A stretch of 64,000 bases of DNA from Candidatus Zixiibacteriota bacterium (GCA_023138975.1 JAGLON010000018.1:160381-224380), one strand, 5' to 3'; shown: positions 18,454 to 37,797, counted from the stretch's first letter. Made by a program: numbers and translations. The notes: generated by a model from the sequence alone, not told the origin.

Positions 18454-18462
18454 ATTGAAGCC

Positions 18463-18783
18463 CTATTTTAACATTAACAACTGATTTTTTGCTGAGTTTT
18501 CCAAAACCTGCTCCACACATCCGAAAAAGATCATCACACAGTGCATGTGGAGTGAGTAGTTCACCTGCGTGCCCTTTTTGGCGCTGGTAATAATTCCGGC
18601 GTTTTTAAGGATTGAGAGGTGCTTGGAAACGGTGGACATATCGGCACCGATAATTTTCGTTAATTCCGCCACACACATATCCTGCTGTGAGAGCATATCA
18701 ACGATACAGAGCCGAGTGGGGTGTGCCATAGCCTTAATAACCCGGGCCCGTATTTCATATTTGGTCATATCAATGGTTTTCAT
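18463..18783 (-). CDS. ArsR/SmtB-family metalloregulator
   Basis: HPTRLCIVDMLSQQDMCVAELTKIIGADMSTVSKHLSILKNAGII winged-HTH pattern. Confidence 0.85.
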   Translation of the reverse strand: MKTIDMTKYEIRARVIKAMAHPTRLCIVDMLSQQDMCVAELTKIIGADMSTVSKHLSILKNAGIITSAKKGTQVNYSLHMHCVMIFFGCVEQVLENSAKNQLLMLK

Positions 18784-19134: not shown

Positions 19135-22008
19135 ATGTTAAAGAGCCGTAAAACTTTAATTGCCGTTTTGTATTTTGTTTTAATTTGCAGTTCAGTTTTA
19201 TTTGCCGCCCAGCTTCAATTGACTACTCCGAGAATAACAGAAGAATTAGAAGAAGCTGCTAATACTCGAATTGAAGATTACACATCATATATCGATGCCA
19301 ATCGGATATTTATGTTTGTGACCAATGAAGGAATGTTCGGTCGTGACCTGGCTGGAGTTTTCGGAAACGACTACGGAACCTACTATCCATATACTTCTAC
19401 CTCTGATATCATAAACGGTTTTAATACCTCGTCGCCTCTCTATGCTGCTGGTATCTGGATTGGCGGAAAAGTAAATGGGCAGACAAGAGTGGCCGTCGCA
19501 GAGTATTCAACTGAATATGTTCCCGGACCTATGCAAAACGGAACCTATCAGCCCGATCAATATGATTTCAAAAATTACAAGCTCTACAATGATAGCATGG
19601 AAAGTAATCCAAATAGTGACTATCTCAATTGGCCCGTTGATCAGGGTGCTCCGGTTGATGAATCTGGAAGACCGGTAATTAAAGGCAACCAGATGCTATG
19701 GAGCGTCTATAATGACGCAAATCCATGGCAGCATATGAGTAACCCCGGAAATACTGATCCATTAGGTATTGAAATTCAACAGTCTGTATATGCTTATAAT
19801 ATGGGCGGATTTGACTCTACCATTATACCTTCAGCACTTGAAGTCACTCATCTGGGCAGCTCCGATATAGGTTTGTCGGCCTATGGAGCAACAACTGATG
19901 TTCTGGAGGGACATGAATACATGTTGATCGTCAAGAAATTTGGTCCAGCTTCACATGAATGGAGTTTATCAAACTTGACTTCGGGAACCATACTTCTGGA
20001 TAATCAAACTCATTCCAACTTTGGCCCGATAGAGGGTTTACGTATTAACCTGGATTTCGGGACATCGGCCATATGGGAGTATGAGAGTGCCACCCCGGCT
20101 AATATCAGCCCGGTTGCAATGCAGGATTATCCGTCCTATACCGGAGGCAGATGGTTTTCCGGTACGGATTTTGGAGGCGAACTCTTTTTTGGTGGTGTCT
20201 TCATGGAACCCAGCTTCTGGGGAGTAACATCGGTTGCGCCAAATGACATCAAGCCGGTAGAAATTCGATTTCAGCCTATGGCCTCGTACACGGATCTCAC
20301 CGGTGACGGACAGTATACCATCGGCGAACCGTTTACAGTCGATGATCCGGGCCAGACACAAGGCGCATTCATGTACTACACTTTTGACGGCAATGCCTAT
20401 GAAGGTTTCTATCCCATTCCGTTCACTGCCTGGGATATATCTGATCCGGGAAATCATCGTCAGCTGAATGTTATCATCAGAGATAGAGACCAAAACCATG
20501 CTTGGAATCTGTACAGCGATGAGTACAACGCCTCCCTTCCCAATGACGGTGATTTACGTTATAACTATACTTGGATACAAGATTCTGACTATGATCCGAC
20601 CGGTACATACTATGGCGATGGTTCCGGAGGTTCGATTGATTTTTGGTCCTATAATGGCGGAAACGGCATCTGGGACGGCATGTGGGTACTCTATCTGAGA
20701 GACCGGTATAACGGAGGTATGCTCGCCGAAGAAGGAACTTTCCGGCTTTTGCCCAATACTGGCATGTCTGTGGATACGTTTTTATTCACAGCCATAGCCC
20801 CCGAGGTGATTTTTAGCGGTCCTGAAGATCAGGCGATTTATCTTGAATATAAATTGTTTAACAAAGGCTCAAACACGATAAGTGATATGTATATATCAAT
20901 GTGGGCCGATCCCGATCTGGGAGGCTTGGCAGATGATCTGGTCGGATGTGATACTATCAATGATGTGTACTTCTGCTATAATCACGATAGTTATGATGAT
21001 CAGTATTTCGATAACCCACCCGCCTTAGGCTTCAAAGTCCTGCGTGGTCCGCTGGTTCCTTCTCCTGGAGATACGGCTTACTTTGACAATATCCCTGTTC
21101 CCAATTACAAGAATATAGGTATGTCATCGTTTAATCTCTATGTCAATGGAACTGATCCGGACAACGCTGCTGAAACGTATAACTACATGCAGGGCCTTCA
21201 GCGGAACGGCGCTCCTCTCCCGAACGGAACTAAATATATGGTTCCCGGCAATCCTGTAGCAGGCACCGGTGATTTAGATGCCGCACCTGCGGACAAGCGC
21301 ATGATGGCCAGCTTTGGACCGTTTAACTTCAATCCGGGCGACAATCAATATGTACTAGTCAAAATGGCCGTCGGACGAGGTGCTGATCGGTTAGAATCAA
21401 TTACTCGGGCCATTCAAGTTCTCAATAACGATCCCGGTGGATTCCCCGATGACCCGTATCAGATGCTCTGTTCGTTATACCCTGATCCTCAGTATGCCCT
21501 TTTTCAATATGCAATCGATCCGATTCTTGATACAATCATATTAGGTCGGCTCGGTGAAGATATTGAAGACATCAATCTGGCCTCTATTCGTATTAATAAT
21601 GACTTGGTACCAATATCCACAGAGTACTTAACCGAATACGAAGGCTTCGGCGGCCGTGTCCTCCGCATAATATTCAACGGCTCTGAATTTGTTGCAGGAT
21701 ATGGCGTTGTATGGGATATGCAGTCTAAGCCATATACTGTCTCCGGACAATTTTCAGACAGTTCGCCGCTATTTTATGAAGGGATCTTTTTGCTTCGAGG
21801 CCACACCAGCGGTGACGCCAATTCTGATGGAATAATAAACGCTGCTGATGCTGTCTATCTCATCAACTATATATTCAAAAGCGGCCCGGCGCCCGATCCG
21901 ATAGAACTGGGCGACGCTAACAATGACAGCAGGATTAATGTCGGCGATGCGGTCTTCTTGATAAATTACATCTTCCGCAACGGCCCGGCACCGGGGCAAC
22001 GGCAGTAA
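19135..22008 (+). CDS. large secreted protein with a C-terminal dockerin-like double repeat; N-terminal 850 aa of unknown function
   Basis: Signal peptide MLKSRKTLIAVLYFVLICSSVLFA, RBS AGGAGGG. C-terminus GDANSDGIINAADAVYLINYIF ... GDANNDSRINVGDAVFLINYIF (two EF-hand-like Ca loops). Confidence 0.85.
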   Translation: MLKSRKTLIAVLYFVLICSSVLFAAQLQLTTPRITEELEEAANTRIEDYTSYIDANRIFMFVTNEGMFGRDLAGVFGNDYGTYYPYTSTSDIINGFNTSSPLYAAGIWIGGKVNGQTRVAVAEYSTEYVPGPMQNGTYQPDQYDFKNYKLYNDSMESNPNSDYLNWPVDQGAPVDESGRPVIKGNQMLWSVYNDANPWQHMSNPGNTDPLGIEIQQSVYAYNMGGFDSTIIPSALEVTHLGSSDIGLSAYGATTDVLEGHEYMLIVKKFGPASHEWSLSNLTSGTILLDNQTHSNFGPIEGLRINLDFGTSAIWEYESATPANISPVAMQDYPSYTGGRWFSGTDFGGELFFGGVFMEPSFWGVTSVAPNDIKPVEIRFQPMASYTDLTGDGQYTIGEPFTVDDPGQTQGAFMYYTFDGNAYEGFYPIPFTAWDISDPGNHRQLNVIIRDRDQNHAWNLYSDEYNASLPNDGDLRYNYTWIQDSDYDPTGTYYGDGSGGSIDFWSYNGGNGIWDGMWVLYLRDRYNGGMLAEEGTFRLLPNTGMSVDTFLFTAIAPEVIFSGPEDQAIYLEYKLFNKGSNTISDMYISMWADPDLGGLADDLVGCDTINDVYFCYNHDSYDDQYFDNPPALGFKVLRGPLVPSPGDTAYFDNIPVPNYKNIGMSSFNLYVNGTDPDNAAETYNYMQGLQRNGAPLPNGTKYMVPGNPVAGTGDLDAAPADKRMMASFGPFNFNPGDNQYVLVKMAVGRGADRLESITRAIQVLNNDPGGFPDDPYQMLCSLYPDPQYALFQYAIDPILDTIILGRLGEDIEDINLASIRINNDLVPISTEYLTEYEGFGGRVLRIIFNGSEFVAGYGVVWDMQSKPYTVSGQFSDSSPLFYEGIFLLRGHTSGDANSDGIINAADAVYLINYIFKSGPAPDPIELGDANNDSRINVGDAVFLINYIFRNGPAPGQRQ

Positions 22009-22023
22009 TAGATTTTGCAGATT

Positions 22024-22056
22024 GACTGTGATTATTCCTTTGGGGTAATCACAGTC
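22024..22056. other. 11-bp-stem hairpin at convergent gene ends
   Basis: gactgtgatta-N11-taatcacagtc. Overlaps the 3-prime end of the minus-strand lipoprotein gene. No T-run. Confidence 0.4.
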
Positions 22057-22532
22057 ACTCGCACGTTGCGATTTTCTAAATGTAGTCGGCAAGGTAATAA
22101 TTCATCTACTCGTAAAAACATCTGATGAGAATCTGTGATATAGTCTGAAATAGCACAGCCTCTTTTCGTCATCGAATAATACGACCAAAACCCACCGTCA
22201 TAGCCAAATTCCGATACCGCCTCATTTGTTTCTACCCAAAGGAGTGTTTTGATATTGCGTACGTGATGCGCAAATTGTAACACCGTACTTGAAAAATATG
22301 AGACTTCAATATCATCAATTGTGCCCGCTTGAATCCCATCAATACCGGAGAAATCAAAAATGAATTGACAATGGGTTGTGTCGGCTGTCGGTATTATTTC
22401 GACGGTGAAAGTATCCATAAGAGTGTTTTGCGATCCGCTATTGTCAGGGTCAGTCGATTTTCCACACGATACTACTAACAGAAACACCAGAACTGCAATC
22501 AGACCGTAGTAAATGACATTAAACTTCTTCAT
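22032..22532 (-). CDS. hypothetical lipoprotein
   Basis: MKKFNVIYYGLIAVLVFLLVVSCG lipobox; 166 aa. Confidence 0.65.
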   Translation of the reverse strand: MKKFNVIYYGLIAVLVFLLVVSCGKSTDPDNSGSQNTLMDTFTVEIIPTADTTHCQFIFDFSGIDGIQAGTIDDIEVSYFSSTVLQFAHHVRNIKTLLWVETNEAVSEFGYDGGFWSYYSMTKRGCAISDYITDSHQMFLRVDELLPCRLHLENRNVRVTVITPKE

Positions 22533-22659
22533 GATCCCCTCCCATCAGAATAACGCCTACAGTATATAGACTATTATAATACTGTTTTTGTTTATTTTAG
22601 GCTATGAAATATTTCCTCACAGCATTTGCATTAGTCGATGATTGTACTATCAGCCTTGT

Positions 22660-23160
22660 AGATTTAACCACCCCCTCGCCCCCTCCTTACTAAGGAGGGG
22701 GATGGGGGAGGTTCGCTGTAAACATGGATAGTAGGGCAGGTTCCCTTAGGAACCTGCCAATGCCAAACATAGGTGACATTCCTATGGCAGGACCCCTAAC
22801 AATATTAGGACTATAGCCTTTATTTCCCCTCTCTAGAGGGGACCTGTATCACGCCATCTTAGTTTATAATTCATTTGAGATGTCCAGAATAATTGCTTGT
22901 GTGTTAAAATAGACTCCAATAATTAAACCTAAACTGCAGAAATTAACAACATCGTCCCCTCTATAAGAGGGGTGCCCGACAGGCTATAGTCCCGCTCTGC
23001 GGGGGCGGGGTGTGTTAACTTGTGGAAAGCGTAAAATGGGTTTACTTGTCTGTTTAGAAAATCTTTCGAGCGTAAGCGAGTTAGATTATCTTAATCCCGC
23101 ATTTTAATGCGGGACGACGAGTACTCCGTGGATGCTCATTTTTTAAAGTTTTTTGAGTAG
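22660..23160. repeat. hairpin-module mosaic A (REP/BIME-like)
   Basis: Modules shared with other gaps: 22666-22712, 22731-22766, 22808-22818, 22948-23018, 23053-23114, 23133-23154 (see findings). Confidence 0.85.
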
Positions 23161-23439
23161 TCCTGATTCGGTTGATATGCTGGCAATGCCTTATTGAGGC
23201 CACCCGGCATGGGTTTCTAGCTACCGCGGTAATTATAATATTCTTAAGGTTTACCGTGAACATAGTTATCCATTGTTTAGACTGTTAGTTATAGAGGTGT
23301 ATTCGAGATTTGCAGTGAATTGGTACTGAATCTGTTACCTAAGTGCCTAGGCTATAGTGTCACTCAATTTTCTGAGAGATACAATTTTGAATTTCTGTTT
23401 GAACAGATTGTATCATCTGTTTCCTGCGGACACAAAGCA

Positions 23440-23466
23440 CTTGGCGGGAGAATTCTCCCGCCCAAG
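23440..23466 (-). terminator. terminator-like hairpin after the FG-GAP/dockerin gene
   Basis: cttggcgggag-aatt-ctcccgcccaag, 24 nt past the stop. Weak T-run (tgctttgtg). Confidence 0.45.
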
Positions 23467-23489
23467 TATTTAATATTGTTCACTTTAGC

Positions 23490-25844
23490 TTATTTTCCGC
23501 ATCCGTCAAGCGGTGGGCCCCCATCCCGGAAAATGAAATTAATCAGATACACAGCATCAGCGAGATTAACAATTTCATCGCCATTCATATTTCCCGCACA
23601 TAAAGGACTTGGTGCAGCTCCAGCTCTAAAAATATAGTTAATGAGAAAAACAGCATCACTGAGGTGGAGAATCCCATCACCGTTGGCGTCACCGGGCACT
23701 ACTTGACTTCCATTACTAAAGGTCTTGTTATAAAGTGTGGCGTATACTGTTGTAATATCAATGTCTCCGTCAGAGTCAAAATCAATTCCTACCGGGTTGC
23801 TCCCAATGATATGATAATGATCGGGCTCAGCAAAAGTACCATCCCCGGCTCCCAACAAAACTGTCAAGTTGCCCGATATTACCCCGGTTATATCAGGAAA
23901 TCCATCGCTATTGATATCAGCGCACAAAGGCTGTCTGCCTCCACACTCGTAATGAACAGGACCTGAGAATGTCCCATTCCCATTATTTAGAAAGATTGAT
24001 GTATTATCGTCGGTTGAAGCCGCTATATCATTGTCTCCGTCATTATCAAAATCCTCCGCCAGCAAACCATAAACTCTATCAATACTGCCCGTAGTATAGC
24101 TTACCGTATCGGCAAATGTTCCATTACCGTTACTCAGCAAGACAACAAAGCCATCTACTATTCCATATTCCAAAAACACCAGATCAACATCACCATCATC
24201 ATCTAAATCAGTAACATCCATAGCACCGGGTGCACCCCCTTCATGAAGATAAGTAGCCGTGCCGAATGTCCCGTCACCGTTATTCAGGCTTATAAAGACG
24301 CCTGATGGATAACTTGAATACGAAATAGTTAGATCGATATCTCCATCCCCATCAAAATCTCCACCCGATAGATATTTGGCTTTACTCCCAATGGAAGAAA
24401 TAATAGCTGACCCAAAAGTTCCATCACCATTATTCGGATATATATATATATCCGTCAAAAGAGAAAATCCTACTGCCAAATCAATATAATCGTCACCGTT
24501 ATAATCAGAACCAAATACTGACAGCGGACGGTCAGGAAGTGCGATGTAGTACGGTGTGTTGTAGGGATCAGGACTATTATTCAGATAAACTGAAATAGAG
24601 CTATCGCTATAATTTGCAGTAGCAATATCATCATGCATCCAATCACCATCAAGGTCGCCGACCCACATATTATAAATCGATCTTACAGCCCGATAAGGTG
24701 TTCCAGCAAACGTTCCATCGCTATTATTCATCAAGACTGCAATTGCGGTTCCTTGACTTACTGCCAGATCAACATTTCCGTCATCATCAAGATCACCAGC
24801 AACCAGCGCGGCTTTGAGACTACCGCCATAATAACCTATTGGCGAAGCAAATGTTCCATCTCCATTGTTTGAAAGAATAGCAATAGTATACGTCCCTCCC
24901 CTGCCAACAACCGCCAGATCAATATCACCATCCGCGTCAAAATCGGCGGCATTTATAGTATTCGATTTTTCAGTTGCGGCATATTTAATAGCCGCACCAA
25001 AAGCACCACTGCCGTCATTTATAAGGATTGAAACGGTATCGGTAACGCTATTAGCGAAAGCAAGGTCCTTATAACCATCACCGTTAAAATCTGCTCCGGT
25101 TACAGAATTCTGAGCCTCACCCAGATCATAATAAACGCCTGCTGCAAACCCTCCAGAACCATTGTTCAGTCGAACGCAGGCACTATTACTTCCCTTGCTG
25201 CCGACCGCCACATCGATATCTCCATCACCATTCAGGTCAGATGCAAAAATTGAATAGGGCAAGGAGCCAACCGTATGGTAGGTGGGTGTTCCAAATACGC
25301 CTGTGCTATCGTTTAGCATTATTGAAATCTGGTTATTGGTAGTTGCTGTGATTACCAGATCATTATCAAAATCACCATCAATATCGGCTATCGTCACGAA
25401 TCGAGGCTGACCGTGAGTATAGTAGCTGATTCTACTTTCAAAGGTTCCATCACCATTATTTTTCGAAACAAAGACATTTCTGCTGCCGGTAAGAATACTG
25501 GATACGCACACCAGATCGATATCGTTATCACCATCAATATCGGCTCCGCTTATAGACATCGGCAACATCCCGGTTAGGTATTCCTCCGCTTCGGCATAGG
25601 TCCCATCGCCATTGTTCAGCAAAACCGAAATATAACTATTATTTTGCGCATCAACTCTTGTGTAAACAACCGCCAAGTCAATATCGCCATCACCATCAAA
25701 ATCCGCAGCGAACATATCCCCGGCACTCCAGACCTCATAAATGGGCGGAAGCCAGTCAAAAAGGTCACCGGCTATAACATTAGCTGTGGGCGTTGAAATC
25801 ATAAAAACGGTTAATATTGTGAGTGTCATCAGCAATTTTCGCAT
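23490..25844 (-). CDS. secreted FG-GAP/VCBS-repeat (beta-propeller) protein with a C-terminal dockerin-like double repeat
   Basis: At least 11 repeats of FxxADFDGDGDIDLxV type. C-terminus GDANGDGILHLSDAVFLINYIF ... NMNGDEIVNLADAVYLINFIF. Start set at MRKLLMTLTIL (25844, GGAGA RBS); the 94-codon upstream extension in the ORF track is rejected. Confidence 0.85.
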   Translation of the reverse strand: MRKLLMTLTILTVFMISTPTANVIAGDLFDWLPPIYEVWSAGDMFAADFDGDGDIDLAVVYTRVDAQNNSYISVLLNNGDGTYAEAEEYLTGMLPMSISGADIDGDNDIDLVCVSSILTGSRNVFVSKNNGDGTFESRISYYTHGQPRFVTIADIDGDFDNDLVITATTNNQISIMLNDSTGVFGTPTYHTVGSLPYSIFASDLNGDGDIDVAVGSKGSNSACVRLNNGSGGFAAGVYYDLGEAQNSVTGADFNGDGYKDLAFANSVTDTVSILINDGSGAFGAAIKYAATEKSNTINAADFDADGDIDLAVVGRGGTYTIAILSNNGDGTFASPIGYYGGSLKAALVAGDLDDDGNVDLAVSQGTAIAVLMNNSDGTFAGTPYRAVRSIYNMWVGDLDGDWMHDDIATANYSDSSISVYLNNSPDPYNTPYYIALPDRPLSVFGSDYNGDDYIDLAVGFSLLTDIYIYPNNGDGTFGSAIISSIGSKAKYLSGGDFDGDGDIDLTISYSSYPSGVFISLNNGDGTFGTATYLHEGGAPGAMDVTDLDDDGDVDLVFLEYGIVDGFVVLLSNGNGTFADTVSYTTGSIDRVYGLLAEDFDNDGDNDIAASTDDNTSIFLNNGNGTFSGPVHYECGGRQPLCADINSDGFPDITGVISGNLTVLLGAGDGTFAEPDHYHIIGSNPVGIDFDSDGDIDITTVYATLYNKTFSNGSQVVPGDANGDGILHLSDAVFLINYIFRAGAAPSPLCAGNMNGDEIVNLADAVYLINFIFRDGGPPLDGCGK

Positions 25845-26134
25845 GTAGGATTTCTCCATAGCTAATAGGATGGTAAATATCTTCATAATATCCCCCGATG
25901 GGTGAATAACTAGTAGATGTCCGCAAATCGATTTGCCCCAGTATAAACGGATAGGCCTACCCAAATGCCCCAAACTTGGTATTGTCTCGTGTGCTCTTTT
26001 GATGCCCCGCAACGCAATAATTGCATGCGGAGAAAAGTGATACTTGTATCTATATATAATATGCAATTGTGATTCTGTCAATAGAGCTTTTTCTTCAGAC
26101 TGTAAAGCCAATAAGAGTACTCTCAACCACAGAA

Positions 26135-26170
26135 CAAAAAAGCCCCTTCGAGGTTACTCAAAAGGGCTTT
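26135..26170 (-). terminator. rho-independent terminator after tRNA-Leu
   Basis: Minus strand reads aaagccctt...aaggggcttt followed by TTTTTTG. Confidence 0.6.
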
Positions 26171-26178
26171 CAAATCTA

Positions 26179-26262
26179 TGCCGAAGGAGGGATTCGAACC
26201 CTCACGCCCGTAAGGACACTGCGCCCTGAACACAGCATGTCTACCAGTTCCATCACTTCGGC
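26179..26262 (-). tRNA. tRNA-Leu (anticodon CAG), long variable arm, CCA not encoded
   Basis: Minus strand reads GCCGAAGTGATGGAACTGGTAGACATGCTGTGTTCAGGGCGCAGTGTCCTTACGGGCGTGAGGGTTCGAATCCCTCCTTCGGCA. 7-bp acceptor stem, anticodon stem CTGTG/CGCAG with loop TTCAGGG, GGTTCGAATCC T-loop. Confidence 0.9.
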
Positions 26263-26449
26263 TTTTCCGAGCAGATAATATATATAAATATTTGGACTAA
26301 GCAACTGTTTTTTCGTCCTAATATTGCAGCCAAAAAGCTCGGAACATTCACCCCATTTGCCGATTATAACTTGTAATGATTGTTTTTGTTGTTAATCGGG
26401 AAATGAAACCAGTTCTTGTGGAAGACCCGAATAGTTTTAAGGAGACTAA

Positions 26450-27817
26450 ATGAAAGTCTGTATTAGTGTTACTCTTCTCATCTGTCTGTTATTACCATTT
26501 CCAGTCTTTGCGGTATCGCCGTATCAGCAGGAAATTTATAGCGCTCGTGACCGTGTTTTACCGGCGCTTATTCATATTCAGCCGGTGGTAATCGACTACA
26601 TTACCGGCCGGGAAAAGAAACATTCCGTGGTCGGTTCGGGAATCATTATCTCCGCCGACGGCTACGCTGTAACCAACTATCATGTTGCCGGCCGAGCCGA
26701 GCGGATCATCTGCACCCTGCATGACAGGGAGCAGGTTCCTGCAGTCCTTATCGGAGGCGATCCGGCCACCGATCTGGCCGTTATCAAATTAGACCTTTCA
26801 GAGTATTCCGGCAAGCTTGACCCGGCTGTCTTCGGTTCATCAAGCGACTTGCAAGTTGGACAAACGGTGCTGGCACTGGGTTCTCCTCTGGCTCTATCCC
26901 GCTCGCTGTCCAAGGGCGTAATATCGACTTTAAACCGCTTCTTCCCCGGCAATATAAGACTTCCCTCCGGTGAAAAAACCGGTAAGTATAATACCTGGCT
27001 GCAAACCGACGCGGCCATCAACCCCGGCAACTCCGGCGGACCGTTAGTAAATCTTGATGGCGAAGTCATGGGGATAAATACCCGAGGCGTTTTCTTTGCC
27101 GAAAACATAGGCTTTTCGATTCCGGTTGATATCGTCAAGGAAGTAACGGCCAAGCTAATTGAATTCGGAAAGGTTGACCGCAGTTGGATTGGCGTTCACG
27201 CTCAACCGCTGCAGGATCTGGAATCATTCTTCGGAACCGAAACTAACCGCGGCGTATTGATAGCCTCAATCGACCCCGGCTCACCAGCTGAGAAAGCGGG
27301 ACTGAAGGCAGGACAGATTATCCTGAAATATAATGGCCATGATGTATCGGCCCGGTTTGAGGAAGAATTGCCGGCCTTTTATCAGATTATAGCATCTTCT
27401 CCAGCCAATACCGAAGTTGAAGTTGTTCTTCATAACGGTGATGATAAAGTTATAAAGATTATTCCGAGAGCGCTGGGCGCTCTTCAGGGTGATGATTTCG
27501 ATTTCGAGAAATGGGGTTTCACCGCCAAAGCGATTACCAATCAAATGGCTATCGATCGCAGACTCGATGATACTCTGGGCGTTTTTGTGACTCAATCGGC
27601 AATGGCCGGTGCCGCCTTTAGCGGAGGTCTTCATCGAGGCGATGTTATCATGGAGCTAAACAATAAACCGGTCAACAGCCTCGATGAACTAAAAACAACC
27701 TATGATGAAATGCAGGAAGCGGAAAAAATCCTTCTGACGATTAATCGTAGCGAAACCCGCCGCCTGGTCCTGATGAAACTGGACAACGAAGAGGATACTG
27801 AAGACGATGAAAAATAA
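26450..27817 (+). CDS. htrA: HtrA/DegP-family periplasmic serine protease with two PDZ domains
   Basis: Signal peptide. Catalytic TNYHV (His), DLAVIKL (Asp), GNSGGPLV (Ser). PDZ motifs GSPAEKAGLKAGQIIL and GLHRGDVIMELN. Confidence 0.9.
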   Translation: MKVCISVTLLICLLLPFPVFAVSPYQQEIYSARDRVLPALIHIQPVVIDYITGREKKHSVVGSGIIISADGYAVTNYHVAGRAERIICTLHDREQVPAVLIGGDPATDLAVIKLDLSEYSGKLDPAVFGSSSDLQVGQTVLALGSPLALSRSLSKGVISTLNRFFPGNIRLPSGEKTGKYNTWLQTDAAINPGNSGGPLVNLDGEVMGINTRGVFFAENIGFSIPVDIVKEVTAKLIEFGKVDRSWIGVHAQPLQDLESFFGTETNRGVLIASIDPGSPAEKAGLKAGQIILKYNGHDVSARFEEELPAFYQIIASSPANTEVEVVLHNGDDKVIKIIPRALGALQGDDFDFEKWGFTAKAITNQMAIDRRLDDTLGVFVTQSAMAGAAFSGGLHRGDVIMELNNKPVNSLDELKTTYDEMQEAEKILLTINRSETRRLVLMKLDNEEDTEDDEK

Positions 27818-29204
27818 GCTGTTTGTTCTAATAATCACGATGCTGTCCGTTTCAGTTCTTTGGGCCGGAGACGCTAATTTCCAAAAGCTGTTTGATAAAG
27901 TGAACCCGCACCTCGTTTCGGTGGAATATAAGGCCGAGATGAATTTTATGGGTCAGTCCGAAGATATCGAGGGACGTGTCCCCGGCATCATTATCAACGG
28001 CAATATTGTTATCTTCGACGGGACATCATTGGGAGCCGGAAGACTGGCAACCGACATGTACGGCTCGCCTCAGGTTGATAAACCGAAATCCATCAAAATC
28101 ACGGATTATAACGACAACACGTATGATGCCGAGTATATCGGCGTTGATGATTACAGTCTAATCGCGTTTTGCCGTCTCCCCGATTCGGCCATGAAAAACC
28201 TGAAAGCAGTAGAGCTTAAAAATAAATCATTGCGGCTGGGTGAGGAAGTTTACGTTTTCTGGATGCTGCCGAAAAGCTACAATCCCAAATATCAACTGAC
28301 CAAAACCAGAATCACCTCGGTCCTGACTAAACCGGAAAAATTCTATCTCACCGGTGAACTGCCTCAGGAGTTTGTTCTGTCTCCGGTCGTTACGGCCAAA
28401 GGAGAGATGATCGGTATTATCACCCCGGTAACACAGGTACCGTCTTATACCCGCTTTGATTACGGTAACGTTTTCGGCAATCCGGTCGGGATTATGCCTC
28501 TGGAGCGGTTTGAGAAAATCATCAATAACCCGCCCGAAGAGGATAAAGTAAAACGCGGCTGGATGGGAATTTCACTTCAGGCGCTCGACCCGGAAATTGC
28601 TGAATTCTGGGATGTCAAAGTTGACGGCGGGATTATCCTAACGGATATAATCGATAATTCTCCCGCGGAAAAGGCCGGTCTGAAAGCCGGTGATTTCTTG
28701 ATCAAACTCAACGGCGAATCAATTGATGTTACGGAAGATGAAAACATTTCTATCTTCCAAAAGAAAGTTTCCGAATTAGGCGCTGGCTCGGAAATTACAC
28801 TGCTCTATATTCGTCCCGGTGACAATCAAGTGGATTCGAATGAAGTTACCATCGTTTTGGCCGAACGGCCGGGCGCTCGCAGTGACGCTCCCAAGCATGA
28901 AGATGAAAACTTCGACCTGACGGTACGGGATATGGTTTTTGCCGACTATAATGCCCGTAATCTAAAAGAGGACGAAATCTCCGGCGTCATCGTCGAGAAA
29001 ATCGAACAAGGCGGATGGGCCGCGGTCGGAGGTCTCCGTACCGGTCTTATCATCACGCAAATCAATGGCAACGAGATTGTCTCGGTTGAGGACTTCAAGA
29101 CCATCATGGCCGAGATTGAGAGCAGCAAAGACAAAGAAGTTGTATTCATGACGTGGCGGCGCAACAAGACAAAATTTGTGCACGTCAAAACCCACTGGGA
29201 ATAA
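27807..29204 (+). CDS. HtrA-like protein with two PDZ domains but a degenerate catalytic triad (pseudo-protease)
   Basis: Overlaps htrA by 11 nt. Where htrA has TNYHV it has VIFDG, and where htrA has GNSGGPLVNLDGEVMGI it has EFVLSPVVTAKGEMIGI. PDZ motifs NSPAEKAGLKAGDFLIKLNG and GLRTGLIITQING. Confidence 0.8.
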   Translation: MKNKLFVLIITMLSVSVLWAGDANFQKLFDKVNPHLVSVEYKAEMNFMGQSEDIEGRVPGIIINGNIVIFDGTSLGAGRLATDMYGSPQVDKPKSIKITDYNDNTYDAEYIGVDDYSLIAFCRLPDSAMKNLKAVELKNKSLRLGEEVYVFWMLPKSYNPKYQLTKTRITSVLTKPEKFYLTGELPQEFVLSPVVTAKGEMIGIITPVTQVPSYTRFDYGNVFGNPVGIMPLERFEKIINNPPEEDKVKRGWMGISLQALDPEIAEFWDVKVDGGIILTDIIDNSPAEKAGLKAGDFLIKLNGESIDVTEDENISIFQKKVSELGAGSEITLLYIRPGDNQVDSNEVTIVLAERPGARSDAPKHEDENFDLTVRDMVFADYNARNLKEDEISGVIVEKIEQGGWAAVGGLRTGLIITQINGNEIVSVEDFKTIMAEIESSKDKEVVFMTWRRNKTKFVHVKTHWE

Positions 29205-29902
29205 GGGAGGATGCCCCCCCTTTTTTAGGCTATTTAGAAAATCTTACGAGTTATAACGAGTTAGATTATCTTAATCCCGCGTTTTAATGCGGGAACGCGT
29301 AGATGACCTGGGTTTTATAATCATGAGTTTGCTTTTATACGGCACAGCTTCGCCTGCCTGAAGATATAAACTTTTTTTCTGACAGGGATACTCCCTTTTC
29401 AGGCAAAGCCTACTACTAAAAAGATGATTTTATAATTAACCACCCCCCATCCCCCTCCTTAGTAAGGAGGGGGGTTTCGACATTGTTCTGCCATTGTAAC
29501 TGGTCATATCCCGGCAGATGTAGATATCCCGCAACGCAGGACAATAGCCTGCCAGGCACAAAACTCCATTATGAAATTCGGTAGGTCAAGACCCCTGCGG
29601 TCTTGACAGTCGGTAGGGCAAGTTCACCCCCTACATGGGCACAATAGCCCTTAGGAACCTGCCATTGCCAACCAAAGGTTGGCAACCTAGATTCCCGCCT
29701 GCCATCAGAGGATAACTTTGTTTTTATGGTCAATCCTCTTCGTAGGGGCTGACTATGTCAGCCCGAAAAGACTTTGGCTGTGATTCCATCCGGGTCGACA
29801 GAGTCGCCCCCTACAGGGAAAATAGAATCCACTTTTTATAGAAAATGTTCAGACCATTTTTCGCCACCAATGGGTGCGGTACAAACTGCTCTAACCTACT
29901 CT
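29205..29902. repeat. hairpin-module mosaic B (REP/BIME-like)
   Basis: Modules at 29233-29294, 29346-29362, 29438-29475, 29520-29549, 29581-29607, 29637-29668, 29742-29814 and 29857-29885, all with copies in other gaps. Confidence 0.85.
29742..29814 (+). repeat. 73-bp REPIN-like inverted doublet (copy 1)
   Basis: GTAGGGGCTGAC-tat-GTCAGCCC ... GGGTCGAC-aga-GTCGCCCCCTAC. The reverse complement of 46035-46107 aligns end to end. Confidence 0.8.
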
Positions 29903-31945
29903 TTACTTCATTGATTTTAACGCTTTTTCGATATTATCTTTTTGAGGACTGTCGGGTACTTGCTCAAGATAGTAAGTCAAATATTTCTCTGCCTTTTTGC
30001 CATCTTTAACATAATAAGCACTGTACCCTGCTAATACATAGTTCTCTAGTCTTTCTGGAAGCACAGATGTCATTTTTTCATAATACACCAACGCCGAATC
30101 ATATTTCTGTAATGTGAAATATGCTGTTGCCATTGCTTCTGTCACTCGGTGATACTCAGGATCAATCTTCAGAGCCTTGTTATAATACTGAAACATTCTA
30201 TAATAATCTTTTATCTTAAAATATAGAACGCCCAAATTTGCATGATTTATTGAACTGTAAGGTTCAAATTCCAGTGCAAGTTTAAGATCAGATTCAGACT
30301 TTTTTAACTGGCCTAAATTTAAATAGGTTACTCCTCGTAGAGCATAAGATCCCGCTTTGTAGGGTTCGATGTTAACAAGCTTATGAGCCAATGGCAGCGC
30401 TTCAGCATACTTTCCCGCAGTATTCAGCCCTTCGGCCTGTCGCAGATAGGTTATTTCTGGAAAAATCTGGCGCGTATGCATTTGAGTACTATTTGCCTGA
30501 GCAGAATCGCCCAAATTTAAATAGTAGTCCTGTAAAACCACATACCCGGTTTTGCTTTTTGGCGTATCAAGTTTCAATAAGTATGTGTAGTAATCTATGG
30601 AAGGTTTAGTCTGCAAATTAACAAAAAAGTATGGTAGTATTAAGAGAAATGACAGAATCGTAATGGCCGGAATAAACTGCTTATGGCGTGTATTACCAAA
30701 ATTCATTGAGGCCAACAAAAGAAGCAACAGCGCAAAACCGCATAGAGAAAACAAGTCCCAATCTCGTCCCATACCAATTCGGGGGTCGAGGATCAATATC
30801 AAACCTAAACCTCCGATAAAAAATACCCATAGGAAATTGCGGGCTGGAGATTTGCCGTTGGCTTTTCGATTTTTTATAGCAAAGTAGAGTAATATTGGCC
30901 ATAGAGGAACCAAGAGGCTGAATTCATTGATAATATCAAGCATATGCGAAATAGAAATCAGTGCATACTCCGTCGCAGGAGCCCGCCCTGAGAATAATGG
31001 CAGAAAATGAACTTCGAATCCGGGCGACGTAAAGTATTTGTAGAAGAATAAGACGGCACCCCCGGCAATTAAAACAGATGCCCCGATCAGGAAGATAGTT
31101 TTGTATTTCTCGAAGAGTTTTCTACCTGGATTAATCGCAATTAATAATACTGGCATTGAGATAAGGAAAAACAGGCTTTGCAGATGCATCACAATAGCAA
31201 GCAAGGCTAACAATACCGGCCAAATAATTCCGCAGTTCTTGTTTATATACTTCAGTGAAAAATAAACATAACCGGATATTGATGCCCACAGAAGCGGATA
31301 ATTTTCAGCATACCCCATAAACAGGAGCATCCACCCGCTGAAAATTGAAAGCGCAAGAATAAATAGTCGATTGATATTCTCCTGAGTTATCTCAAAAGCT
31401 ATCCCGCACAGGAAGAAAACAGTAACGCCTCCGGATAAGACAGAGACTACAGCAAAGGCGGTTTCGCCTCCCTCTTTGCCGGCAACCGGTAATATTGAAT
31501 AGACAAGTTTGACAACAGCAATCGATCCGATTTCCGTCCACTTATACATGACCGGGTTATCGCTCCCGATGTGACCGATAACAGTATATCCGTCTCCCAG
31601 AAAATGAGTCGGCATCTTAAGGATCCAGAAAAGAATCATAAGGACTACTGAAAAAAGCATCCACTTGATCTGTTTCTTACCGGAAAATAGAAATCCGAGA
31701 GATTCAAAAAGTTGAAGAACCGCCTTGTTAAAACTCTTAATTAGAAACAGAAACAAAAGAAGAAAACAGCAGAGATAAGGAATCAGGGTAGCATCCGGTA
31801 AAAACTGCAGATGATTAAATCCCCAAATACGACCTTCTGGAAGAACCAGGTGAATGAAACGTACGAGAACCAGCATCAATCCCAATGCAGTGACTATGAT
31901 TGGGTTGATTGTGTAGTTTTGATCATTGTAAGAATTGCTTTTCAT
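29903..31945 (-). CDS. multi-pass membrane protein with C-terminal TPR repeats (GT-C-like architecture; family not recognised)
   Basis: 680 aa, about 12 TM helices, then TPR-like repeats (AEALPLAHKLVNIEPYKAGSYALRGVTYLNLGQLKKSESDLKLALEFEP...). Confidence 0.7.
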   Translation of the reverse strand: MKSNSYNDQNYTINPIIVTALGLMLVLVRFIHLVLPEGRIWGFNHLQFLPDATLIPYLCCFLLLFLFLIKSFNKAVLQLFESLGFLFSGKKQIKWMLFSVVLMILFWILKMPTHFLGDGYTVIGHIGSDNPVMYKWTEIGSIAVVKLVYSILPVAGKEGGETAFAVVSVLSGGVTVFFLCGIAFEITQENINRLFILALSIFSGWMLLFMGYAENYPLLWASISGYVYFSLKYINKNCGIIWPVLLALLAIVMHLQSLFFLISMPVLLIAINPGRKLFEKYKTIFLIGASVLIAGGAVLFFYKYFTSPGFEVHFLPLFSGRAPATEYALISISHMLDIINEFSLLVPLWPILLYFAIKNRKANGKSPARNFLWVFFIGGLGLILILDPRIGMGRDWDLFSLCGFALLLLLLASMNFGNTRHKQFIPAITILSFLLILPYFFVNLQTKPSIDYYTYLLKLDTPKSKTGYVVLQDYYLNLGDSAQANSTQMHTRQIFPEITYLRQAEGLNTAGKYAEALPLAHKLVNIEPYKAGSYALRGVTYLNLGQLKKSESDLKLALEFEPYSSINHANLGVLYFKIKDYYRMFQYYNKALKIDPEYHRVTEAMATAYFTLQKYDSALVYYEKMTSVLPERLENYVLAGYSAYYVKDGKKAEKYLTYYLEQVPDSPQKDNIEKALKSMK

Positions 31946-32039
31946 TGACTAGTCCGTGTTTTTTGACTTATTCAAGCTATAATATAAGTCAAAATAATGG
32001 CTTTGGATATCAAGTTATCTATTTTTTCTATTGGCTCAA

Positions 32040-32640
32040 TAATAAAGAGAAGGTCAAGACCTACCCACTGCGTGGGTACTATAGCCTGTGATCCTGACAT
32101 TGCCAACTGTTTTTCAAACGGGTCATTTCACCGCGCAAAATGCAACATCGTCCCCTCTATGAGAGGGGTGCCCGACAGGGCGGGGTGTGTTAATGCAATC
32201 TCATCCAATTCGCGCTCTGCGCGAAACGGCTTCGCCTGCCTGAAATTCTTCTACCCGGTATCCCACGGCTTCAGCCGTGGGTTTTTCCTTATTGATAGCA
32301 AGTCGACTAATTTCGCACCCAATGGGTGCGGTACACTGTAGCCACAAATCATCTACTAATAACATACACACATTTTCGCCACAACTTCGTTGGTGATTTC
32401 GAATTGCTCATCTTTTTATAGATATCCTTATATGTTATAGCGGAGAGACCATTATGCTCGCCTGTAAAAACCAAATCAAATTCAATCGCCAAAACGACCA
32501 ACTTTCAATCTTGCTTATTTCTGGCAATTTACACAAAGCCGAAAACAAAAAAACTTTAAAAAATGAGCAAGCAAACCCAATTCCTCGTAACGCCCTGTAT
32601 GGTAATCAGTAACGAGACTTTTTAAGGAAATAGGTCTCAA
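32040..32640. repeat. hairpin-module mosaic C (REP/BIME-like)
   Basis: Modules at 32052-32105, 32144-32192, 32228-32244, 32262-32281, 32311-32338, 32548-32569 and 32610-32628, with copies in other gaps. Confidence 0.85.
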
Positions 32641-32708
32641 AAAATATACGTTAATATGAAAAACAAAGCCATTTTCCGGATGAAAAACGCGAAGTACTCG
32701 TCGTAGAC

Positions 32709-32994
32709 GAGTGTCTCCCCTGCGAAAGCAGGGGTCCATGCCGAGATTGACTTTGCTTGGGCATGGATTCCCGTTTTCACGGGAATGACAAAATGATAAT
32801 TTGAGTATTAGAGTGTCTCCCCTGCGAAAGCAGGGGTCCATGCGGAGATTGACTTTGCTTGGGCATGGATTCCCGTTTGCACGGGAATGACAAAATGATA
32901 ATTTGAGTATTAGAGTGCCTCCCCTGCGAAAGCAGGGGTCCATGCGGAGATTGACTTTGCTTGGGCATGGATTCCCGTTTTCACGGGAATGACA
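32709..32994. repeat. tandem repeat, 102-bp unit x 2.8, each unit carrying three hairpins
   Basis: Units start at 32711, 32813 and 32915 with only about 3 substitutions in total. Hairpins cccctgc-gaaa-gcagggg, ccatgc..gcatgg and attcccg-ttttca-cgggaat. Confidence 0.9.
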
Positions 32995-33109
32995 TATCTG
33001 AAATTGGCTCAAATAATAAAACTTATTAGGATAATGCCAAACTTTTCAAATCTACTTTCCAATCTGACTTGACAATGGTTTTGCCACCATTTTGCCTGTT
33101 TTTGATTCC

Positions 33110-33124
33110 GGCACAGGCTTTGCA
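33110..33124 (+). promoter_or_regulatory. sigma-54 (-24/-12) promoter of the cohesin/T9SS gene
   Basis: cGGCAC-aggct-TTGCA with the GG-to-GC offset of 12 nt, 95 nt upstream of the ATG at 33219. An AT-rich tract lies between it and the tandem repeat. Confidence 0.6.
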
Positions 33125-33218
33125 ATATATACACTTCAGAATATGAAGAACTTATTGAACGACATACTATTGAGAGAATATATCGTATAATGATAGAGGA
33201 GTAGAAAGGACCGACATC

Positions 33219-34064
33219 ATGAAACATATGCTAAAGCATTTCACAGTGGCTGCAATAGTTTTCGCACTTTGCACAATTGCCGCACCGGTTTTCGCTGTTG
33301 ATATATCGGTTGGGTCTGCGACAGGCGCTCCGGGAGATCAAGTTGTTGTTCCCGTTTACCTTAACAACAATGACGTCAGGATTGCGTCTCTTACCGTACC
33401 GCTTCAGTTCTCCAATACCTACCTTAATATCGATTCGGTATCTTACGCAGGAACACTCATAAAGCCGAATATGTCTCCCCTGACCCATATCGATAACCCG
33501 GGGCAGTTTTTACGGATCACTTATATTCCCAGCGCCGGTCTACCACTGATTGAGGATTCTCAGGGACTGCTGGCCAATATTTACTTCACGATCTCTCCAT
33601 CGTCCCCGGATCATATTATTTACGTGGACTCGGTAAATAGTTTGACAACCATACAGAGCCTTGATATATGGGTGCGTATGGAAATTAGCGATTCTCTGGG
33701 AGAGAGCTTGGTCTTTCCTGACTTCTCAGCCGGGACAGTCGAAGTCAGAAATCCTCTTGATGCCGATGATGATGAATTTGGTTTGCCTAATGTACTGGCC
33801 TTGAACCAGAATTATCCTAACCCGTTCAACCCGACAACGACAATCAAGTTGGCCGTTCCTGTTGCCTCCGATTATTCATTGGAGATTTACAACATTGCCG
33901 GTCAGAAGATTCGTTCCTTCAGTGGCTTTGCCAATGCTGGAAACGTTGAAATCGTGTGGGATGGTAAGGACAATTCCGGCAGCACGGTTGCTACAGGTGT
34001 CTATTTCTACAAGGTTATAGCTGGAGAATTCTCCGCTACCAAGAGAATGGTCATGCTGAAGTAA
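33219..34064 (+). CDS. secreted cohesin-domain protein with a T9SS type-A C-terminal sorting domain
   Basis: Signal peptide. Cohesin-like ISVGSATGAPGDQVVVPVYLNNNDVRIASLTVPLQFSNTYLNIDSV. C-terminus LNQNYPNPFNPTTTIKLAVP...GVYFYKVIAGEFSATKRMVMLK (Por_Secre_tail pattern). Confidence 0.8.
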   Translation: MKHMLKHFTVAAIVFALCTIAAPVFAVDISVGSATGAPGDQVVVPVYLNNNDVRIASLTVPLQFSNTYLNIDSVSYAGTLIKPNMSPLTHIDNPGQFLRITYIPSAGLPLIEDSQGLLANIYFTISPSSPDHIIYVDSVNSLTTIQSLDIWVRMEISDSLGESLVFPDFSAGTVEVRNPLDADDDEFGLPNVLALNQNYPNPFNPTTTIKLAVPVASDYSLEIYNIAGQKIRSFSGFANAGNVEIVWDGKDNSGSTVATGVYFYKVIAGEFSATKRMVMLK

Positions 34065-34097
34065 TCAAGCTTTGTCTGAAATCACAGCTTGTTTCGT

Positions 34098-34132
34098 ACC
34101 CTCGTGCCTCTTCGGCACGGGGGTATTTTTTT
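34098..34132 (+). terminator. rho-independent terminator after the cohesin gene
   Basis: ccctcgtgcc-tctt-cggcacggggg followed by TATTTTTTT. Confidence 0.8.
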
Positions 34133-34187
34133 GTCTGCGCCGTATCCGTAATTGACTTAGCCTCTTCATTTCCGTACTATTTTATCG

Positions 34188-34613
34188 ATGGAAAATAAAC
34201 GATATTTAGGGATTGACTATGGCACCCGGAGAGTCGGCGTGGCCGTGTCGGATCCGATGGGAGTGATTGCCAGACCGCTCGATACGCTCATAATAGACTC
34301 AATGGGTCAGGCCGTCGAAAAAATAGGCGATTTGATTGTCGAGTATGAGCCGGTTGGAGTAGTTGTTGGAAATCCTATTTCTATGTCCGGGGACGAGTCG
34401 GAATTGTCGCTTTTGGTTGATGAGTTTGTGGAGCTTCTAAAAGATACAACCGATGTACCGGTGACTTATGAAGATGAGCGGTTAAGCTCGGTACAAGCGA
34501 AACAAGTACTGCATTCGCACGGTAAAAAGATAAAAGGGAATAAAGAAATAATTGATCGTATCGCCGCCGCGATTGTTCTTCAGTCATTCCTTGACCGGAA
34601 TAGTGGTGTGTGA
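34188..34613 (+). CDS. ruvX: Holliday-junction resolvase-like / pre-16S rRNA nuclease YqgF
   Basis: YLGIDYGTRRVGVAVSD N-terminus; 141 aa. Confidence 0.9.
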   Translation: MENKRYLGIDYGTRRVGVAVSDPMGVIARPLDTLIIDSMGQAVEKIGDLIVEYEPVGVVVGNPISMSGDESELSLLVDEFVELLKDTTDVPVTYEDERLSSVQAKQVLHSHGKKIKGNKEIIDRIAAAIVLQSFLDRNSGV

Positions 34614-34635
34614 CAAGAATAAAATTGCCGATATA

Positions 34636-37790: not shown

Positions 37791-37797
37791 GGCCACA

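Follow-up and report, generated by a model that had tools for sequence, protein, structure and literature searches.

The 64-kb stretch of DNA analysed here (the window) comes from a MAG of an uncultured member of Zixibacteria that is 99.98% identical to GCA_030634725.1. It encodes three proteins, A, B and C, which by their domain content probably make up a cell-surface tethering system of the kind earlier proposed for related phyla. Each carries a Sec-type signal peptide at its N terminus, as read from the sequence, and the three ORFs and their quoted motifs are exactly as the initial annotation described them. [quoted passage not shown] The case is a genomic one, built on modules already named in public annotation. 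The host is a diderm, since a TonB-dependent receptor gene is encoded in the window. A pseudopilin-like gene is also present there.

Protein C, its family and its locus

Protein C (281 aa; 33219..34064, plus strand) was characterized from its ORF, Pfam and NCBIfam searches, and an AF2 model. It consists of a signal peptide (aa 1-26), one cohesin (aa 27-180), a disordered acidic linker (aa 181-201), and a T9SS type-A C-terminal sorting domain (CTD; aa 199-281). The cohesin module (33297..33758, plus strand) was recognized by Pfam, by a family profile, and by AF2/Foldseek. C scores 40.2 bits against Pfam Cohesin (PF00963; cut-off 24.1) over aa 28-134, and the C-family profile retrieves solved cohesins from the PDB sequences, with 4uyp_A as the best match (E 7.4e-8). 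The AF2 model has a pLDDT of ~95 over aa 27-180, and its first 25 Foldseek PDB matches are cohesins (25/25). In this predicted structure the region is a nine-stranded beta-sandwich (jelly-roll) that can be superposed on solved type-I cohesins, with TM scores of 0.87 for 1aoh (rmsd 2.0 A), 0.85 for 6kgc, 0.82 for 4uyp, and 0.80 for 2xdh. The model therefore matches cohesins rather than an unrelated Ig-like fold, which the initial annotation had named as a finding that would refute its reading. The CTD (33813..34061, plus strand) scores 44.2 bits against TIGR04183 (cut-off 23; aa 199-278) and 32 bits against PF18962 (cut-off 27), and is modeled as a beta-sandwich with a pLDDT of ~90. HMMs, profile comparison with PDB sequences, and predicted fold thus bear out the proposed combination of a cohesin with a T9SS type-A CTD. 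The initial description of C as a scaffold, however, does not hold: cellulosome scaffoldins have several cohesins and usually a CBM, whereas C contains a single cohesin, without a CBM, and would thus be a monovalent anchor.

The C family comprises 2264 homologues. Full-length members are ~265-310 aa (the closest 277-285 aa), carry Cohesin together with Por_Secre_tail, and belong to Zixibacteria wherever an organism name is given. C is the most canonical and best-conserved cohesin that we found. Further cohesin(-like) proteins with a CTD, of 798 and 873 aa in L008 and of 836 and 799 aa in L002, are encoded in these two loci of Zixibacteria.

Comparison with the reference MAG shows that C is encoded in the window by a hybrid gene, in which the sequence from the CTD onward derives from another gene through an inversion or a mis-join at a 26-nt CTD motif. 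Window positions 23219..33844 correspond to the locus of native C in the reference (99.98% match), and positions 33807..47368 match another reference locus (99.985%), in which ruvX comes after the CTD of an 872-aa protein. It is to this 872-aa protein of the reference MAG that the CTD of C in the window belongs (identity to L090). The 26-nt core at the junction (TATCCTAACCCGTTCAACCCGACAAC; 33813..33838, plus strand) encodes YPNPFNPTT and is common to both parental loci, which lie ~62 kb apart in the reference. Because native C (P0001, 277 aa) likewise bears a CTD, the cohesin-CTD architecture stands. About 225 nt upstream of C is a 102-bp tandem repeat (32709..32994; 2.8 copies, with two hairpins per unit), and NCBI MAG contigs end at this repeat.

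Upstream of C, Pfam identifies htrA (Trypsin_2 and PDZ, 455 aa) and an overlapping gene for a DegP-like PDZ protein (465 aa), together at 26450..29204 on the plus strand. The pair scores 135 bits against NCBIfam degP_htrA_DO, under the curated cut-off of 416. These are a predicted periplasmic protease/chaperone pair, and they adjoin C in nearly all relatives. In this species a polytopic membrane protein of 680 aa with C-terminal TPRs (29903..31945, minus strand) sits between the pair and C. The order htrA–PDZ–C–Ser/Thr kinase recurs in 8-9 of 9 distinct genomes, and the kinase starts 34-90 nt past C, a spacing that suggests co-transcription of the two. The constant neighbors of C are concerned with envelope quality control and signaling, with no cargo among them. 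Given this conserved position, C behaves like a core gene and may serve as a shared receptor.

Dockerin proteins and their distribution

Protein A (957 aa; 19135..22008, plus strand) is a dockerin-tagged secreted protein whose ORF encodes a signal peptide (aa 1-24), an all-beta family domain reaching to ~aa 775, an Ig-like beta-sandwich (aa 777-888), and a dockerin. The dockerin module (aa 893-946; 21811..21972, plus strand) contains two Ca-loop/helix repeats of 22 residues each, DANSDGIINAADAVYLINYIFK and DANNDSRINVGDAVFLINYIFR, and matches Pfam Dockerin_1 at 41.6 bits over its full extent (gathering cut-off 22.9; E 1.5e-10). Beyond Dockerin_1, no family was matched in Pfam or NCBIfam searches. 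The A-family profile matches the solved dockerin 4fl4_A among PDB sequences (E 7.8e-8). AF2 predicts three helices in the module (903-915, 923-926, and 936-948), and Foldseek returns a local match to the double dockerin 8x39_A with an rmsd of 2.1 A and a weak E of 0.055. The complete AF2 model of A has a pLDDT of 83.7 and gave nothing convincing against PDB folds (TM <= 0.15). The family is all-beta and expanded in Zixibacteria, and NCBI names an identical protein 'dockerin type I repeat-containing protein [candidate division Zixibacteria bacterium]'.

Protein B (784 aa; 23490..25844, minus strand) combines FG-GAP/VCBS beta-propeller repeats with a C-terminal dockerin. Its start is uncertain and may lie 14 codons downstream, at MRKLLM (25802). 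FG-GAP_3 matches B in 13 stretches (248 bits, Pfam). The dockerin module (aa 717-771; 23532..23696, minus strand), with repeats DANGDGILHLSDAVFLINYIFR and NMNGDEIVNLADAVYLINFIFR, scores 21.6 bits against Pfam Dockerin_1, slightly below the cut-off of 22.9. A dockerin HMM built from relatives places the module in the final 60 residues, at aa 821-881 when the 887-aa ORF is counted from stop to stop, and over the whole of B it scores 94 bits, to which the FG-GAP region contributes through weak matches. In both A and B, a ~22-residue segment that pairs a DxNxDG-type Ca2+ loop with a following helix can be read twice, and so the claim that both proteins end in double dockerins was upheld by the repeats, the Pfam scores, and the relatives-based HMM. 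Between A and B lies a gene for a predicted lipoprotein (166 aa; 22032..22532, minus strand; lipobox ...VVSC), which was found in same-species assemblies only.

The dockerin cargo seen in Zixibacteria includes the A family, FG-GAP, Laminin_G_3, and Rax2/DUF5122 propeller proteins, Peptidase_S8 (2), M1 and C10 peptidases, and GSDH. No glycoside hydrolase domain was present in the roughly one dozen dockerin proteins inspected in Zixibacteria loci, whereas in a cellulosome dockerins are mainly found on glycoside hydrolases or other CAZymes; this agrees with the non-cellulosomal context initially suggested. Both repeats follow the consensus GDANGDGxxNxGDAVYLINYIFxGGPAP on unrelated cargo and in genomes only ~55% identical, and such near uniformity is the expected product of one conserved partner. 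In the A family, either a dockerin or a T9SS CTD is found behind the same N-terminal domain, and S8 subtilases and GSDH-type propellers likewise bear one or the other. This interchange in three cargo families fits the dockerin and the CTD being two alternative surface-targeting tags, and the initial view of the dockerin as a surface-targeting tag gains support from it. Within 1.3 Mb of loci, 24 ORFs had a dockerin only, 120 had a CTD only, and 1 had both, and the cohesins in these loci co-occur with CTDs. The dockerin cargo has a Sec signal peptide only and no CTD.

In locus L087, an A orthologue lies 272 nt directly upstream of C on the same strand, and in two further genomes one lies 8-11 kb or less from C. 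Dockerin genes are dense, however, at ~1 per 19 kb in control loci and only about two-fold enriched near C, so proximity to C alone is weak evidence for its pairing with A and B. Dockerins of this type number 27195 cluster representatives at E <= 1e-3, and some proteins have 9-15 tandem copies.

Proposed tethering mechanism and alternatives

From these data we infer a secretion route, an anchoring chemistry, and a binding interaction with its specificity. C would be exported by Sec, as its signal peptide suggests, and the type IX secretion system would then recognize the CTD and carry C over the outer membrane. Once its CTD had been removed, C would stay at the cell surface, probably through a link to lipid or LPS. 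In Porphyromonas, the T9SS CTD is cleaved and the passenger is joined to surface LPS; covalent anchoring of C would be an extrapolation from that case. The single type-I-like cohesin may then bind the Ca2+-dependent dockerins of varied secreted proteins, one cargo per anchor. Candidate cargo would be A and B and, in relatives, also subtilases, M1 and C10 peptidases, lectin-like proteins, and other propellers, making the system a putative monovalent device for displaying proteases and binding modules at the surface rather than a cellulosome.

Observed directly, and in favor of C as an anchor, are the module identities, the cohesin fold of the model, conservation of the C family, synteny, the uniform dockerins, and the dockerin/CTD interchange, to which dockerin/CTD exclusivity, A-C adjacency, and a precedent in Cloacimonadota can be added. 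Several observations count against it, namely the CTD-less cargo, the dockerin density, the other cohesin-CTD proteins, the non-cargo neighbors of C, and the state of the T9SS evidence. No T9SS core genes (SprA/Sov, PorV, PorU, GldK-N) lie within the window, and none of the 10 Zixibacterial CTD proteins tested was PorU; a bulk scan of 120 ORFs listed 25 of 541 families. Zixibacteria are absent from the phyla listed in the literature as possibly having a T9SS, and our literature search yielded no paper connecting the two. In addition, release rather than anchoring is also possible for type-A CTD cargo (PMC10994853).

The modules could be genuine without C being the receptor of A and B. The dockerins might use the larger cohesin-CTD proteins, or act cohesin-free in Ca2+-dependent stabilization or adhesion, while C binds one dedicated other partner. 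The cohesin(-like) CTD proteins of L008 and L002 would be available for this role, dockerin representatives far exceed the apparent need of cohesin anchors, dockerin genes are hardly closer to C than background, and the invariant neighbors of C are not cargo. We nevertheless consider this unlikely, because no other cohesin found is as canonical or as well conserved as C, a single dockerin consensus holds over cargo and genomes as would fit one conserved receptor, and in one genome an A orthologue immediately adjoins C. The conserved gene order, with the kinase so close behind C, could also place C in an envelope stress or signaling module whose other members are HtrA, the PDZ protein, and the Ser/Thr kinase; the cohesin fold would then serve some other contact (with C as sensor or substrate) and display no cargo. 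This we regard as improbable to a greater degree, as the CTD would direct C out of the periplasm and away from HtrA and the kinase, its cohesin specifically matches dockerin-binding type-I cohesins, matching dockerins abound in the same genomes, and mere inheritance may have kept the gene order.

A further possibility concerns the route rather than the partners. In a form of 'hitch-hiker' secretion, C may pick up dockerin proteins that have no CTD while they are still in the periplasm and lend them its own in trans, the complex crossing the type IX translocon non-covalently and staying together on the surface, so that C would be an adaptor first and an anchor second. The host is a diderm and its dockerin cargo has only a Sec signal; the same cargo families occur with a covalent CTD, so their fold is presumably T9SS-compatible if Zixibacteria possess a functional T9SS; and C is small, monovalent, and conserved beside a periplasmic HtrA/PDZ pair. 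Such a route would explain why scores of dockerin proteins have no outer-membrane export signal, why dockerin and CTD alternate, and why a monovalent core gene is conserved by HtrA-type chaperone-proteases. To our knowledge, co-transport through a T9SS has no precedent; none appeared in the T9SS papers retrieved by a search not aimed at co-transport. T2SS or another route could also export the cargo, given the pseudopilin-like gene in the window, and periplasmic and extracellular assembly fit the data equally. We therefore give this route only a slim chance, comparable to that of the stress module, and retain C as a surface anchor as the favored reading.

Relation to known systems and significance

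The closest logic to that of C is found in OlpA and OlpC of Clostridium (Acetivibrio) thermocellum (PDB 3ul4, 4dh2), each of which combines one type-I cohesin with an envelope-anchoring module and is thought to tether single dockerin proteins to the cell. Their structures are among the fold matches of C (TM 0.76-0.82), although sequence identity is only 16-18%. They are anchored by SLH repeats to a monoderm wall and receive cellulosomal CAZymes. C, from a diderm, bears a T9SS CTD instead, and its candidate cargo consists of peptidases, propellers, lectin-like proteins, and the A-type family. Bacteroidota type-A CTD cargo such as gingipain RgpB shares with C the ~80-aa Ig-like C-terminal domain (TIGR04183/PF18962) and an N-terminal Sec signal. 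The passenger of C differs in being a cohesin only, predicted to receive other proteins, and for Zixibacteria both the T9SS machinery and A-LPS sortase chemistry are putative.

The concept of a cohesin-CTD anchor has itself been put forward before (Cloacimonadota, 2021), and our contribution is a Zixibacterial addition to the proposed scheme. For Candidatus Stygibacter (Cloacimonadota), a cellulosome-like complex was proposed in which a CTD-bearing cohesin scaffoldin is joined by dockerin peptidases (PMC8542988). Stygibacter is likewise an FCB-group diderm, the CTD of its cohesin protein is for surface attachment, its dockerins occur on S8 and C25 peptidases and other non-cellulolytic proteins comparable to the cargo here, and the evidence is purely genomic (PMC8542988). 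Its scaffoldin, however, has 3755 aa, tandem cohesins, CBM2/CBM3, and some GH cargo (PMC8542988), whereas C is a core gene of another phylum with one cohesin, no CBM, and no GH cargo seen. Cohesin–dockerin use outside cellulose degradation is also represented by the 'Planctosome' of freshwater Planctomycetes (PMC6461901), the Archaeoglobus fulgidus cohesin 2xdh, and a Chlorobiota pair (bioRxiv 10.64898/2026.03.19.712371). These sets resemble C in having peptidase or adhesin-type cargo on a non-clostridial cell surface but belong to different phyla and have lamin-tail domain or T1SS/RTX anchors in place of a T9SS CTD.

The analysis raises a concrete, testable question, namely by which route CTD-less dockerin proteins exit a diderm cell. 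If binding holds, C would be a very small natural anchor (~250 residues when mature) and a possible tool for displaying proteins on T9SS-bearing bacteria. The uncultured phylum Zixibacteria is widespread in sediments and aquifers. If C does bind these dockerins, Zixibacteria would have a general means of coating their surface with proteases and binding modules through cohesin–dockerin pairing and a T9SS-sorted anchor, and non-cellulosomal cohesin–dockerin use would reach another FCB phylum.

Domain architecture of proteins A, B and C

The three open reading frames to which the initial annotation assigned dockerins, FG-GAP repeats, a cohesin and a type IX secretion system (T9SS) type-A C-terminal sorting domain (CTD) were confirmed by ORF, Pfam and NCBIfam matches. 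In protein A (19135..22008, plus strand; 957 aa), Dockerin_1 at aa 893-946 is the sole match in Pfam and NCBIfam (41.6 bits; cut-off 22.9). Protein B (23490..25844, minus strand; 784 aa) contains Pfam FG-GAP_3 in 13 stretches (248 bits). Its Pfam Dockerin_1 score, 21.6 bits, is slightly below the cut-off, and its last 60 residues are matched by a dockerin HMM made from relatives, which scores 94 bits over the whole of B; weakly matching FG-GAP stretches account for part of that score. Protein C (33219..34064, plus strand; 281 aa) combines a Pfam Cohesin domain at aa 28-134 (40.2 bits against 24.1) with TIGR04183, the T9SS type-A sorting domain, at aa 199-278 (44.2 bits against 23). Sec-type signal peptides could be read at the start of all three proteins, and a six-frame motif scan of all 64 kb returned no additional dockerin repeat and no additional NYPNPF-type CTD.

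Solved structures were matched by both family profiles, that of C retrieving cohesins (best match 4uyp_A, E 7.4e-8) and that of A type-I dockerins (best match 4fl4_A, E 7.8e-8). In an AlphaFold2 model of C made from 40 aligned homologues (mean pLDDT 86.5), aa 27-180 fold into a beta-sandwich, aa 181-201 form a disordered linker, and the CTD is another, small beta-sandwich. When this model was compared with the PDB by Foldseek, all of the first 25 matches were cohesins, with TM scores of 0.87 for 1aoh (rmsd 2.0 A), 0.85 for 6kgc, 0.82 for 4uyp and 0.80 for the non-cellulosomal Archaeoglobus cohesin 2xdh; within the limits of a predicted model, this excludes an unrelated Ig-like fold for the cohesin region.

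Conservation of C and its hybrid copy in the window

C has 2264 homologues, and the full-length ones, which measure about 265-310 aa (277-285 aa for the nearest), share the Cohesin+Por_Secre_tail architecture and belong to Zixibacteria in every case with a name; one is already a "cohesin domain-containing protein" in NCBI. Across nine distinct genomes the order htrA (Trypsin+PDZ), second PDZ protein, C and ~560-aa Ser/Thr kinase is kept (window 26450..29204 and 33219..34064; Zixibacterial loci L001, L003, L088, L089 and L092-L095), and the gap from C to the kinase start is 34-90 nt in 8 of the 9. Given this conserved position, C is a core gene with a single cohesin, and the scaffold proposed initially gives way to a putative monovalent anchor. 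The arrangement may reflect a functional link between the T9SS-sorted cohesin and envelope quality control or signalling. A metagenome scan with a 7-sequence cohesin-only alignment yielded 4 loci. A contig scan of genomes with the full C alignment was rejected as a finder of cohesin relatives because it keyed on the CTD motif QN[YFA]PNPFN and returned generic T9SS cargo across FCB phyla and no cohesin relatives; its loci were kept as a background set.

The reference used here, the Zixibacteria MAG GCA_030634725.1, has a protein in NCBI with exactly the sequence of A, and an ENA scaffold from that organism agrees with window 23219..33844 at 99.98% identity. The match to the native C locus stops at 33838-33844. 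From 33807 to at least 47368 the window follows a second locus of this MAG, at 99.985% identity; there the CTD belongs to an 872-aa T9SS-sorted protein, and ruvX, yceG and an S41 peptidase come next. The junction (33807..33838) affects C and everything downstream to at least 47368, such that C in the window carries a CTD from another gene and is followed by ruvX instead of the usual kinase. Only 26 identical nucleotides, coding for YPNPFNPTT, are common to both parents. Both parental genes lie on reference contig DAOWAE010000005.1, ~62 kb apart and in opposite orientation, an arrangement that points either to inversion of the stretch between two oppositely oriented CTD motifs or to a mis-joined, chimeric assembly. 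The native 277-aa C is present in three assemblies (ENA, NCBI and Logan) and the hybrid in none of these. The cohesin+CTD architecture is unaffected by the join because native C also has a CTD.

The 872-aa CTD donor (L090 of the reference MAG, 5335..7953) contains an internal dockerin-like pair, GDINMDGIDYTVADAVMF... and SDANADGATLTVADLVYL..., and Pfam detected only its CTD. Its N-terminus resembled a cohesin by eye, but hhalign gave a weak match (probability 16%, E 0.0016, 48 columns), and the protein was therefore not counted as a cohesin. About 225 nt upstream of C, a tandem repeat (32709..32994) comprises 2.8 copies of a 102-bp unit at 97% identity, each with two GC-rich hairpins, CCCCTGCGAAAGCAGGGG and ATTCCCGTTTTCACGGGAAT; NCBI MAG contigs end at this repeat, and an Rfam search of 18-36 kb, repeat included, gave no match. 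Dispersed intergenic repeats of 65-78 nt (82-88% identity) also appeared as extra BLAST matches between the window and L001, namely 23050..23114 with 29230..29294 and, inverted, 46035..46112 with 29737..29814.

Dockerin cargo and its possible pairing with C

A family of 449 proteins shares the N-terminal domain of A (~775 aa), and almost every member comes from Zixibacteria or FCB. The domain (window 19267..21459; aa 45-775) is large, all-beta and expanded in Zixibacteria, and has no Pfam or NCBIfam relative; the all-beta model of A (pLDDT 83.7) has no credible relative in the PDB (TM <= 0.15). An acidic/cysteine cluster, W590-D592-D594-G596-D601-C605-D606, is invariant in the family (motif WxDPDLGxxxDDLVGCD, aa 590-606). 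Immediately upstream of A, a cluster encoding an ArsR-type regulator, ArsP permease, thioredoxin, DsbD-like protein, DinB and DUF1579 (window 14519..18783) is syntenic with 2241..6509 of a relative's locus, L087, where the A orthologue is only ~59% identical, so A has inherited its position together with unrelated genes as one block. As the initial annotation held for its two cargo proteins, no glycoside hydrolase domain was found in roughly a dozen dockerin proteins inspected. C has just one cohesin and no CBM, and the inspected cargo has no glycoside hydrolase; the system therefore does not qualify as a cellulosome.

The consensus GDANGDGxxNxGDAVYLINYIFxGGPAP, found in both dockerin repeats, is common to unrelated cargo (the A family, FG-GAP, Laminin_G_3 and Rax2-type propeller proteins, and M1 and C10 peptidases) and stays constant across genomes merely ~55% identical, a pattern that one conserved receptor would give. 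In 1.3 Mb of fetched loci, cohesins occur together with CTDs, and 24 ORFs carry only dockerins, 120 only CTDs and 1 both. In members of the A family, the shared N-terminal domain is followed either by a T9SS CTD with nothing in between or by an additional Ig-like domain and a dockerin; the same alternation occurs in S8 subtilases and GSDH-type propellers. Together, the alternation and the ORF counts suggest two interchangeable routes to the surface, in which a protein would either carry its own covalent CTD or, through its dockerin, borrow the CTD of a cohesin protein.

The real partners of the dockerins could be other cohesin-like CTD proteins, which do occur in Zixibacteria loci, and this weakens the case for pairing with C. 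In favour of pairing are the uniform consensus, the alternation of dockerin and CTD, and the place of some A orthologues: one genome has the gene 272 nt upstream of C and on its strand, and two others have it within 8-11 kb of C. Dockerin genes, however, number ~11 per 207 kb in Zixibacterial loci not chosen for C (background ~1 per 19 kb) and are only ~two-fold enriched near C, so nearness was set aside as weak evidence for pairing. That C tethers dockerin-tagged proteins at the cell surface is the reading towards which we lean, with modest confidence.

Such dockerins are found very widely, in 27195 cluster representatives at E <= 1e-3, and some of the representatives P0280-P0310 carry 8-15 tandem copies, which have no obvious role if one cargo binds one anchor. 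With the 72-aa dockerin as sole query, a set of 5.8 billion proteins yielded short fragments only, from which no cargo census could be drawn. One Zixibacterial protein (L009, 6511..8949) is an S8 subtilase with a PKD domain whose chain continues through a cohesin-like domain into a dockerin, and an Ignavibacteriales protein (L015, 6963..9401) has the same tail; these could be an adaptor type, or the domain beside the dockerin could be X-module-like.

Possible secretion route and related systems

No T9SS core gene was found within the 64-kb window or among the 25 of 541 families listed in an NCBIfam scan of 120 Zixibacterial ORFs, and PorU was not among 10 Zixibacterial CTD proteins; these searches are absence of evidence only. 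The rest of the window encodes housekeeping genes, glycosyltransferases, regulators and a TonB-dependent receptor. It also holds three paralogous polytopic membrane proteins with C-terminal TPRs (6596..8485, 11965..14160 and 29903..31945), near glycosyltransferase and methyltransferase genes (2963..6618). Two of the three match a TMEM260-like protein O-mannosyltransferase, which hints at protein or envelope glycosylation. In the literature, no paper connects Zixibacteria to T9SS or to dockerins, and a recent review names other FCB phyla, but not Zixibacteria, as possible T9SS holders.

The organism is diderm, yet its dockerin cargo lacks a signal for outer-membrane export and would leave either by another pathway or as a complex with C; the latter would be new biology and seems improbable. 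That C stays anchored at the surface and is not released once its CTD is cleaved is assumed by analogy only, and type-A CTD cargo may be released rather than anchored (PMC10994853).

In its proposed function, C resembles single-cohesin anchors such as OlpA and OlpC. Non-cellulosomal cohesin–dockerin systems have also been proposed from genomes for Planctomycetes, as the "planctosome" (PMC6461901), and for Chlorobiota (bioRxiv 10.64898/2026.03.19.712371). The most relevant precedent comes from Cloacimonadota: a cohesin scaffoldin with a CTD is proposed there to display dockerin-tagged peptidases and hydrolases (PMC8542988). The Zixibacteria case is a like inference in another FCB phylum. New in this case are a monovalent anchor that is conserved, the htrA–PDZ–kinase genes around it and the alternation of dockerin and CTD in three cargo families.
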